This document shows positions 9,001 through 12,000 of a stretch of 26,045 bases of DNA, in pieces. Position numbers: made by a program. Origin of the DNA: a virus (lineage: Duplodnaviria > Heunggongvirae > Uroviricota > Caudoviricetes); IMG/VR virus record IMGVR_UViG_2695420600_000004, one strand, 5' to 3'. How positions within the stretch are numbered: position 1 is the first letter of the stretch; every line of letters starts with the position of its first letter.

Positions 9001-12000
9001 GGATACTCTGCAGTCCCTTCACCGGACCTTCTATCAGTCCCTCACCAATCGCATCAATCACGCTCATCATCTGCGTGGATTTGAGATTATCCTTCGCCTC
9101 ACGAGGCGTGTGTGCCTTACCGCCACCTTTTCCCATACAGCCTTCCCCTGAATAAATTAACCGCCACTTGCCATTCCGTACAGAAGTCGGATATCCTTCG
9201 CCCGAAAAGCATGAAACACATTTCTGCCATGCTAAAGAGAAACCCCGGTATCAGCAGATACCGGGGTTTTCTTTCATGCCCACCGATAATCCTGTTGGTT
9301 AAAACCGGTAATGGCATAAAAATTCTGAATATCTTCACATTTTCACAAACTGACTGTGGCGCGTATAATTTCTCTGCGTTAATTTTTTTGTCGTGATATA
9401 AGAATAATTCCTTACACTTAATCTTCGTAACTCTCCCGCAGTTCCTGTCCGCGATCACTGCGGGATTTTTTTATTCTTTTTACCCCTGCCGCCCGATAAC
9501 CACGACCTTTCCGCCCCCGCCTTCATCACGGGTGCTGATGTCCTGGGATATACGGCGGGAGCCAACCAGCATTTCCCCGTAAGGCACCGGCATCGGGTTC
9601 CCCTGGGCAATCATGTTATCCAGTGAGGAAAAGTACGTGTTCTGTCTGCCGTTATCCGTTGCGCGGTAATCCGGTGTTTTTGCCTTCGGGGCCAGCATCT
9701 GGGCCACACCGCCCAGAATCATGCTGGCTCCAAGTGAAAACAGCATCGTGGTGGCAGAAAAACCACCGGCTGCCAGGGCTGAACCCCATAACGCCATTGA
9801 TGCCCCGGCAGTGAAGAAAGAGCCCACGATGGCTGCCGCCCCCAGCACAATCTGCAGTCCACCCTTTCCGGCCCCGGCCAGTCGCGGCACAATGTGGATG
9901 ACCGTTCCCTCACCCAGCTGTTCGTGAAGACGGGCGTACACCGCCTCCGGTGCCGTGTCATAACCGGCAATACGTATCTGGTACCAGCCTTCGTTCATCT
10001 GACGGCGAAAGCCCGGCATCTGCATCGACAGGGCGCGAATGGCTTCCGCTGCCGTGTTCACATACAGGCTGAGGCGGCGGCCAAATCGTTGTAAATCCCC
10101 GTGAAGGCAGATGCGTGCCAGTGGCGGTGACGCCAGACTGAATGCGTTCGTCGTTGCCATTTTTCGGAATACCTCTCCCGTTTACTCAGTTGTTCAGGCA
10201 GATGGTGAAGCAGCTCACCGTTGCCGCAGTAAATGGCGGCATGGTTCGGTACCGAAGCACCAAAGCAGCACAGCAGAATATCGCCCGCCTGTGCAGAGGA
10301 CAGGGGCACCCGGTAAAAGCCGGTGACCGCCATATTGTCCAGGTAAAGGTTCTGACCGTTGCGCCACCAGTCATCCTCGCGATGAAAATCCGGCATTTCA
10401 GTCCCCGCCAGATGATAAGCATCCCGGAACAGCGTGTAACAGTCCGTCACCCCGTGCTCAAAGCGCCGTCCTGTCAGATGTGGCACACAGCGGAATTTGT
10501 GAATGTCACCCCGGCAGACCAACCACCAGGGCAGTGCGCTTTTTATCTGCAACCGCCGGTCAGCCTCGCTCAGCCAGGGCAGCCCACCGGGATGACTGTG
10601 GACCAGTGCCACAATCTCCCCCTGCATCTCTGCCCGCAGCCAGTCTTCCGGTGCGATACGAAAATACGCCTCCGGCTCTGCGGAAATATTCACACAAGGG
10701 ATATACCGCTCCCCCTCCGGCGTGCTTATCACGAAGCCGCACGACTCCGCAGGCGCACACCGCCGGGCATGTGCCAGAATCGCTGATTCAGTCTGTGTCA
10801 TAAACCGGGATTTACTGCGAAAGTTTATTAATGGAAAGGAAACCGCCAAAATTGCCGACATTCCTGCGCAGTTCACACCCGCGCATGCACTTGCTGCATC
10901 TGTCCTTACGGATATCCGTGGTGGGGTTGTCGAACTCATCCGCCACCGCAGGACCGTTATACCCGCATTCATCTCCCCGGTAATCCCACATACAGGTGTT
11001 CGCCAGCATGATGCGACCGGGAAACAGCGCCCCGTCCGTCTCGGTCGGTGTAGCCAGCACAAACGAGGCCGTCATGGCTGTCAGCTGCGACATCTGCTCC
11101 ACCACCCAGCGGTCACTCAGCTCCTGCTCCGGGTCCGCCTCCGGATTGCCCGCAACGAAATTCACCGCATCCAGAAAACGGGCATACACCCGGCGGCGGA
11201 CCACCGTGGCCCCCACCAGACTCTGCAGGTCTTCCGCCATCCCGGTGACCAGACCGAACAGATTGGACACCGTCAGCGACGGTCTGGCACTGCTGCCCCG
11301 GCCGTTCATCTCAAAGCCGCTGCCGTCAATCGGGTATGCCTCATACTTACGCCCCTGCCAGGTGACCGGCTCCCCTTTTTCATTCAGCTCATTACAGAAA
11401 AAATACCGCTCACCACCCTGTACCGTCAGGTCGATTTCCCAGAGTACCACCCGCGGTGACTGCTCTGACTTAACCGACTCGTTCAGACTTTCTTCGCGAA
11501 TATCCTGCATCAGTTCACCACCTGCTTAAACTCCGCGCTGAACTCAACGCGCAACATCCCGACCCGCGCAGACCACCCGGCACAGGTCACCTTTATCTGC
11601 CGGTATGCATAGGGTGGCTTCCACAAAAATGCCTTCCAGCCACCGTGCTCTGCCAGGAACGCTTCCAGATGCCGGGCCTCCTCCCGGGTCACGGAAAGCG
11701 TCACCCTGTATGTTTTCAGGTCAGCATTCAGCCCTGCCGCCATACGCTGTGAGTACCCGTCACCAAAACGCACTTCACGCACCGATGGCTGCGAGTTCAC
11801 CTCCATATCCGGCTTCACTTTCCAGCGAAAGGTTTTCATCCACCGCTCCCTGATAACATACCGCCATCACGCAACTGCAGCCGGAGTTCATCCTGTGCCC
11901 CCTTGCGGGCCATCTCATACACCGCTTTCATCAGCTGCGGCCCTGCCCGCCCGTTGGGGCCGTCGTTCTGAATCACCACGTGATTGTTCTGATTAAAATT

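Follow-up and report, generated by a model that had tools for sequence, protein, structure and literature searches.

The locus studied here raises the question of what is encoded in a long spacer between the phage tail genes I and J. It lies in a 26,045-bp stretch of the viral record IMGVR_UViG_2695420600_000004, referred to as the window in the following. It corresponds to a lambdoid prophage's late region in reverse orientation, with the genes on the minus strand in the order Nu1, A, W, B, C, D, E ... V, G, T, H, M, L, K, I, J, lom, stf and tfa. Open reading frame (ORF) calls and Pfam matches place the I stop codon at 9480-9482 and the J start codon at 9136, leaving the 343 bp between them (9137-9479) that had originally been noted. 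In lambda the gap is 60 bp (NC_001416; I ends at 15444 and J starts at 15505), in keeping with the few tens of base pairs that had been given for it. The original prediction had read the spacer either as a small-RNA unit or as the remnant of an accessory moron insertion. We conclude that the spacer is very probably an intact pasB-family gene, a moron encoding an Hfq-dependent small regulatory RNA (sRNA). Both the small-RNA and the moron part of the prediction are thus retained on the synteny with and homology to PasB, whereas the unit is intact and not a remnant.

PasB is one of five prophage sRNAs that were found by RIL-seq (sequencing of interacting RNAs after their ligation) in the enteropathogenic Escherichia coli (EPEC) strain O127:H6 E2348/69 (Pearl Mizrahi et al. 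2021, PMC8550237). The 83-nt RNA is encoded on the minus strand of prophage PP6 (NC_011601.1, 1466343 to 1466261) between E2348C_1436, which is I, and E2348C_1437, which is J (Table S6 of PMC8550237). The same study reported a Northern band at the predicted size, 37 RIL-seq partners and log2 fold changes of -6.8 and -2.4 in an hfq deletion. The baseMean of PasB was 482-1082, whereas its neighbours I and J had values of 5 and 15 (PMC8550237). In the E2348/69 chromosome I ends at 1466255 and J starts at 1466496, and the layout is that of the window, with PasB convergent with I.

The unit in the window lies at the I-J position opposite to the tail genes with its 3' end beside the I stop codon, is homologous to PasB, has a promoter and a terminator for an RNA of about 80-100 nt and is non-coding. 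Over 83-84 nt the window allele and the published PasB are 73% identical, the longest common word being 25 nt. The promoter hexamers and the 3' 25 nt are conserved between the two, and intermediate alleles bridge the classes. The reverse complement of the PasB Northern probe, AGCTCCGCGATCACTGCGGGATT, is present in the window as 19 contiguous nt at 9448-9466. Alleles v1 and v2 (E2348/69) differ by C27A, which is the published difference between PasB and PasB-2, and this agreement confirms the register of the alignment. When the published 83-nt sequence was used as a BLAST query against the window, a word size of 28 returned nothing and a word size of 11 only the 25-nt terminator, with 30% coverage. 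Since plain BLAST with the published query fails, the homology is argued from the alignment and the conserved flanks.

Besides the I-J site and the orientation, the window unit shares with PasB the TTCACA-16-TATAAT promoter, the CCCGCAG/CUGCGGG stem followed by U7, the blocks AUCUU and UCCUU, a similar predicted length and a 3' end that is separated from the I stop codon by 6-7 nt. Both also have IS009 in the flank, which is a typical PasB neighbour (Zhu, Shabalina and Storz 2026, bioRxiv 10.64898/2026.05.13.724894). The two loci differ in the left arm, which is unrelated and measures 94 nt in E2348/69 but 196 nt, including a 13-bp hairpin, in the window.

The near-consensus sigma-70 promoter of the original prediction was confirmed. 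It is the only match of at least 11/12 on either strand of the window, where 0.165 would be expected per window according to 200 first-order Markov simulations. Its -35 and -10 hexamers are kept upstream of PasB in E2348/69, and in the alignment the Stx2c phage has AATAAT as the -10. The proposed T-tract terminator at 9435-9480 was recovered by a terminator scan and by folding: the scan found a shorter hairpin at 9448-9464 followed by a T-run, and the fold extends the stem as listed in Table 1. The I stop codon follows 7 nt past the final U, and the T-rich tail continues to 9479 and touches it. From these elements a plus-strand RNA antisense to the late operon is predicted, with a length of 97 or 84 nt, which supports the roughly 70-105 nt expected before. 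The 97-nt RNA folds with the terminator stem formed, at -19.4 kcal/mol and z = -3.0 compared to shuffled sequences. The second extended -10 that had been proposed at 9394-9402 (TGaTATAAG) did not hold up. It ends in G and not in the conserved T and lies inside the transcribed RNA, and other alleles have unrelated sequence at the same place.

Table 1. Features of the I-J spacer and its flanking genes (window coordinates)
Feature	Position	Strand	Details
pasB sigma-70 promoter	9342..9369	+	-35 TTCACA 9342-9347, 16-bp spacer, -10 TATAAT 9364-9369; predicted start G9376; 11/12 positions
pasB-family sRNA, allele class A	9376..9472	+	97 nt from the promoter prediction; 9389-9472 (84 nt) is the counterpart of the 83-nt PasB annotation
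Intrinsic terminator, probable Hfq-binding 3' module	9435..9472	+	CCCGCAGU 9435-9442 / ACUGCGGG 9457-9464, 14-nt loop, A, U7 9466-9472
Predicted single-stranded pairing region	9405..9428	+	AAUUCCUUAC 9405-9414, anti-Shine-Dalgarno-like; UAAUCUUCGU 9419-9428, contains AUCUU
Conserved block 5' of the -35	9313..9341	+	A/T-rich ATAAAAATTCTGAATATC plus TCTGA-N6-TCACA at 9324-9339
'Long' left arm	9137..9312	.	one of two unrelated arm types; 196 nt vs 93/94 nt in E2348/69, Sakai and Stx2c phages
13-bp perfect hairpin	9240..9275	.	AAACCCCGGTATC 9240-9252, loop AGCA, GATACCGGGGTTT 9257-9269; T-rich tails on both strands
Tail assembly gene I	9480..10061	-	Pfam Lambda_tail_I, E = 3.4e-10; convergent with pasB; RefSeq agrees for the identical ATCC 25922 context
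Tail tip gene J, disrupted	5049..9136	-	three successive ORFs (8933-9136, 7220-8863, 5049-7226), J domains in all

The block upstream of the promoter is part of the conserved unit. The homology common to every allele and arm type starts at this block, and two unrelated left-arm types meet at ATAAAA(A/T/C)TTCTGAATAT. With the Stx1a and Stx2c phages the BLAST matches begin at query positions 177-180, corresponding to 9313-9316, and the common part is limited to the promoter-to-terminator region, about 9313-9471. The TCTGA-N6-TCACA element resembles CRP half-sites with one mismatch and is invariant among the alleles; relative to the predicted start, its centre is at -44.5. With two occurrences in the window and 0.73 expected, the pattern has no significance on its own. 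PasB was found to be higher in the non-activating condition, where Spot 42 is lower (PMC8550237). The block may have a regulatory role, with the CRP-like site as a lead only.

A second group of RNAs joins this family. EcOnc22, EcOnc23 and EcOnc24 were described on the plus strand of the prophages Sp15 (Stx1), Sp14 and Sp11 in the enterohaemorrhagic E. coli (EHEC) O157:H7 Sakai (Tree et al. 2014, PMC4104026). They were crosslinked to Hfq, ran at about 85 nt on Northern blots and were destabilised without Hfq (PMC4104026). The I-J spacers of Sakai Sp15 and Sp14 hold a pasB-like unit with the layout of the window. The reverse complement of the EcOnc22/23/24 probe falls inside the body of the Sakai unit, with 23 contiguous nt and three differences in the rest. 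EcOnc22-24 are alike to the window unit in the strand opposite to the tail genes, the position of the pasB body, the AAUCUUC block and the terminator stem. They differ in the body and in the promoter region, which is rearranged: additional nucleotides separate TTCACA from a -10-like hexamer, AATAAT. Because this extra sequence separates the hexamers, the near-consensus promoter of the window is absent from the Sakai alleles. In the alleles corresponding to EcOnc22/23, the extra sequence is found at 1085-1140 of the Sp15 locus (L126) and in the Sp14 locus (L127); the RNAs were detected nonetheless. The published EcOnc22-24 coordinates are about 120-150 nt off the current Sakai record, which we take to be due to a change of the record version.

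Judged by their sequences, EcOnc22-24 and PasB are one family. This link is absent from both PMC8550237 and bioRxiv 10.64898/2026.05.13.724894, and in Table S6 of PMC8550237 homologues from EHEC are given for PasA and PasD, whereas for PasB none is named. The targets of EcOnc22-24 were given as unknown in a 2021 review. When the RNA sequence itself was looked for in the literature, it was found in no paper text. Likewise, no Rfam family matched the spacer at the gathering threshold, and none gave a meaningful match at E values up to 10 in 8900-9700. The best sub-threshold Rfam matches in the spacer centre on the hairpin at 9240-9275, and PasB has no Rfam model.

Of 5426 complete E. coli genomes, 1662 contain the spacer, and RefSeq leaves it unannotated in the 25 genomes listed. 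The window allele occurs at an identity of at least 99% in the records of 613 complete E. coli genomes. A relative with 90-95% identity, found in Shiga toxin-producing E. coli (STEC) and O157, accounts for 588 records, and the E2348/69 type at 95% or more for 925 records of complete E. coli genomes. An E2348/69-type query at a coverage of at least 80% retrieved 1103 genomes, near the 1107 PasB-positive chromosomes of the published survey, an agreement that is only suggestive because the genome collections differ. Within Escherichia the survey applied BLAST with word size 28 and a coverage above 75%, and the settings were relaxed only outside Escherichia and Shigella (bioRxiv 10.64898/2026.05.13.724894). 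As these published settings fail to retrieve the window allele, we infer that it could not be counted in the survey.

To collect alleles, viral contigs were scanned with the invariant promoter word, which gave 120 loci, and a genome scan added two more. Among about 125 loci there were 31 distinct RNA sequences, the window allele being the commonest; the terminator and AUCUU are retained in every one of them. Alignment A2 comprises 22 of these 31 alleles. Kept across the 22 are a 5' GCGUUA-U-rich leader, an invariant AUCUU and the terminator stem, and most also have an AAYUCCUU block. Between the conserved blocks the sequences fall into at least five classes with indels. Among the aligned alleles, only v5 departs from the 7-bp stem CCCGCAG/CUGCGGG, pairing as a 6-bp CCCGCA/UGCGGG stem, and the loop varies from 4 to 16 nt. 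RNAalifold predicted the terminator stem as the only consensus helix and the body as open.

The arms and bodies of the loci were then compared. In the phage PPompW, the left arm and the promoter are 100% identical to the window over about 218 nt, whereas the body is of the PasB-2 type and has about 30 differences from the window body within about 80 nt. The 118 viral loci comprise the arm and body combinations long-A (38), long-B (22), short-A (12), short-B (16) and others, showing independent assortment. Because of this assortment and the mosaic in PPompW, the body behaves as an exchangeable allele between fixed control elements. We tentatively propose that pasB is a polymorphic 'seed cassette', in which at least five old body classes are exchanged by recombination among near-identical prophages and reprogram different host mRNAs; this is a possibility for which we hold no strong expectation. 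If it is true, the family would have about double the distribution in E. coli that was reported in the published survey, the undercount arising because the survey search is blind to classes such as that of the window. A unique pasB allele with an E. coli phage promoter was also observed on the 3408-bp contig NZ_JBHTEB010000006.1 ('Streptomyces flavalbus', L125); most likely this contig is an enterobacterial or phage contamination of the assembly.

From the anatomy and the published relatives, the following sequence of events is proposed. In a lysogen, the minus-strand late operon would be silent and the host RNA polymerase would start at the sigma-70 promoter on the plus strand. About 84-97 nt would be transcribed until the polymerase stops at the terminator, 7 nt before the I stop codon. 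The unstructured C/U-rich body and the 3' hairpin with U7 would then constitute the usual Hfq-binding module. The window allele keeps the 3' hairpin, the U7 and the U-rich body and by analogy is expected to bind Hfq. On Hfq, the body (AAUUCCUUAC ... AAUCUUC) would pair in trans with purine-rich, Shine-Dalgarno-like stretches in mRNAs of the host and the accessory genome and alter the translation or the stability of these targets. The region 9405-9428 would thereby act as an anti-Shine-Dalgarno element with allele-specific targets. As its body differs from that of the published PasB, the window allele may have a different target set. At induction the sRNA might also be turned off by the late transcript, since the latter contains its exact complement. 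Taken together, a trans-acting, Hfq-dependent, base-pairing prophage sRNA is the best-supported reading of the locus; all sequence elements needed for it are retained in the window allele, and by analogy with the relatives the window allele would share their expression, size, Hfq dependence and the capacity for RNA partners.

Several points weigh against this reading. The transcript data come from other alleles and strains only, and the published partners are not transferable because the body is 27% divergent from the studied allele. The literature holds no validated target for any family member, and the function of PasB is not elucidated according to the 2026 survey (bioRxiv 10.64898/2026.05.13.724894). 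A duplex scan of the sRNA against 23 translation-initiation regions of the window gave nothing beyond the shuffled controls: the best duplex energy was -26.8 kcal/mol, for gene D, compared to a median of -23.8 and a best value of -35.1 with shuffled sRNAs. The covariation analysis of the 22 alleles predicted the terminator stem but gave no covariation support, as this sole consensus helix never varies. The 5' end is a further point. It may be G9376, counted from the -10 (97 nt), or about 9389, the equivalent of the E2348/69 RNA-seq annotation (84 nt), and no other promoter fits a start at about 9389. In E2348/69 the -10 predicts a start from which the RNA-seq 5' end is displaced by 13-15 nt in the downstream direction, therefore either the RNA is processed or one of the two estimates is wrong; 5' processing or a loss of coverage across the U-rich leader may be the cause. 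Finally, continued selection is not guaranteed because the prophage is probably defective, with J disrupted.

In a separate observation, CCUUACACU (9410-9418) of the sRNA is perfectly complementary over 9 nt to AGUGUAAGG at about 19200, which overlaps the Shine-Dalgarno sequence of the head gene D. By chance, the 23 start regions together would be expected to yield about 0.2 matches of this kind.

The trans-acting reading was weighed against three others. The RNA could act mainly in cis, by pairing with the late I-J mRNA after induction and leading to RNase III cleavage or to an uncoupling of I and J, or by interference of its convergent promoter with late transcription; conversely, the late transcript could titrate the sRNA and thereby free the host targets when the prophage is induced. 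The complementarity to the late mRNA is perfect by construction, the gene is convergent with I in every locus examined with its terminator abutting the I stop codon, and the I-J position is fixed though both flanks recombine. We nevertheless consider a mainly cis-acting RNA unlikely: the published relative is bound by Hfq and has 37 trans partners, and this was seen in lysogens with hardly any expression of the adjacent late genes (baseMean 5-15; PMC8550237). Moreover, the locus is unchanged in a prophage in which J is already disrupted, and lambda assembles its tails without pasB.

The disruption of J leads to the next alternative, that the spacer is a non-functional relic here, its promoter and terminator being left over from a moron and its RNA being without effect. 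J has a nonsense codon and a frameshift, lom appears truncated and no function has been shown for any family member. However, the unit is intact in its promoter, body and terminator, the promoter comes close to the consensus, and in EPEC and EHEC related alleles give abundant RNAs that are bound to Hfq. The sequence is base-for-base identical in the records of 613 complete genomes despite the disrupted J, which makes decay unlikely, and we give this explanation little credence.

That the spacer encodes a small protein is hardly credible: although a 113-aa minus-strand ORF (9117-9458), a 94-aa plus-strand ORF (9112-9396) and shorter ones exist mechanically and one phage record annotates a hypothetical protein across the region, the two ORFs have no Pfam match, the minus-strand ORF crosses the two hairpins and extends over the J start, no counterpart exists in E2348/69 (where the longest ORFs on that strand are 22-26 aa), the allele indels are not multiples of three, RefSeq annotates nothing in the spacer of the 25 genomes listed and no ORF is common to the 31 alleles, as had been foreseen when no fitting ORF was seen.

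The left arm of the spacer, in which neither a conserved ORF nor a match to Pfam or Rfam was detected, contains the 13-bp hairpin that had been proposed to terminate transcription on either strand. Its stem and T-rich tails are real, with energies of -28.7 kcal/mol on the plus and -32.2 kcal/mol on the minus strand and z values of about -5.7 on both. However, it does not end the sRNA, because it lies upstream of the sRNA promoter. No minus-strand promoter of at least 9/12 was found for an antisense RNA that would end at this hairpin. On the late strand it forms a terminator-like hairpin with a U-rich run, at a distance of 103 nt from the J ATG on its upstream side. In E2348/69 and Sakai, the unrelated short arms have a different late-strand hairpin with a U-run at the same place, and the short-arm variants hold its stem by one compensatory change (CAGGCACC/GGTGCCTG vs CAGGCATCC/GGATGCCTG). 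The 60-bp spacer of lambda contains AAACCGCC-UGCG-GGCGGUUU followed by UUGUCAUUU. These late-strand hairpins with U-runs, whose stems are unrelated, were located in lambda at 15445-15504 (NC_001416), at 1420-1450 of locus L003 and at 1030-1065 of L126 (Sakai Sp15).

We know of no description of a positionally conserved late-strand hairpin between I and J. From its presence in E2348/69, Sakai and lambda we conclude that a late-strand hairpin shortly before J is an older element of the I-J junction; the pasB unit lies between the I stop codon and this ancestral hairpin. The hairpin may be an element for processing or stability; alternatively, it may be a terminator through which the Q-modified polymerase reads. 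One viral locus with a 149-nt left arm lacks exactly the 47-bp hairpin segment, and the junction coincides with a direct repeat, TTTCT, as in a deletion by slippage. Because this variant keeps the locus without the hairpin, the hairpin is dispensable for the retention of the locus.

The neighbouring genes show the state of the prophage. J starts at 9136 with MGKGGGKAHTPREAKDNLKS... and has an in-frame stop at codon 68 (8933-8935) in place of a Trp codon, the translation reading ...GVTAV*RAGEQEQ, and the frame changes near 7220-7226. The J protein of ATCC 25922 is intact with 1230 aa. The prophage is probably defective, J being disrupted. The last piece of J contains two Ig_J_second domain stretches in Pfam, and 5113-6907 of the window has no match in the ATCC 25922 J. 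The lom (Ail/Lom) ORF at 4496-4978 on the minus strand encodes 160 aa that cover positions 1-159 of the 199-position Pfam profile, and it appears to be truncated at the C-terminus. The only Rfam match at gathering level in the window is IS009 at 838-1036 on the minus strand (218 bits). This match falls entirely within the tail fibre assembly gene at 798-1250 (Caudo_TAP), and the IS009 'RNA family' may model a conserved coding sequence. In ATCC 25922, a strain with the identical allele, where the spacer corresponds to NZ_CP009072.1 3960539-3960881 and to 6001-6343 of locus L001, the RefSeq tags pass from DR76_RS19585 (J) to DR76_RS19595 (I) and skip RS19590, which may be a gene call that was withdrawn later.

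The element is not new in kind, the family having been described in 2014 as EcOnc22-24 and in 2021 as PasB. Our additions are modest and comprise a divergent allele class and its likely omission from the survey, the link to EcOnc22-24, the assortment of the body in the manner of a cassette, and the distinction between the ancestral I-J hairpin and the sRNA unit. They concern an unannotated regulatory gene, outside Rfam and the RefSeq annotation of the genomes listed, in about a quarter of the complete E. coli genomes, and its carriers include many extraintestinal pathogens. The assignment to the PasB family joins two literatures, that on EcOnc22-24 in EHEC and that on PasB in EPEC, and shows that BLAST surveys limited by word size undercount the family. 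Allele-specific pairing regions could give lineages a different post-transcriptional wiring.

Among the known systems, the spacer RNA was also compared with AgvB and AsxR (EcOnc01/02 of EHEC; RF02702 and RF02703). An identity with either was rejected, as neither gave an Rfam match in 8900-9700 at E values up to 10 and the published sequences are unrelated (AgvB is CGATAACACAACAATATCAGTATCTCATGCTATTGCCCGAACCCATTCGGGCATTTT). Like the pasB family, AgvB and AsxR are short, prophage-borne, Hfq-binding RNAs whose 5' part varies while the 3' terminator is conserved, and they occur in several alleles and copies per genome. In contrast, they have another genomic position and are shorter, with 51-60 nt. 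AgvB and AsxR act as sponges of GcvB and FnrS. Lambdoid phage morons were reportedly the subject of work by Juhala et al. in 2000. Like a moron, pasB is an extra unit with its own promoter and terminator within a conserved operon, is absent from lambda and is expressed from the prophage. It differs in that its cargo is a non-coding RNA and not a protein gene, and in that it is oriented against the operon. Nevertheless, since it brings its own promoter and terminator and lies between two late genes, pasB is a moron in the usual sense.

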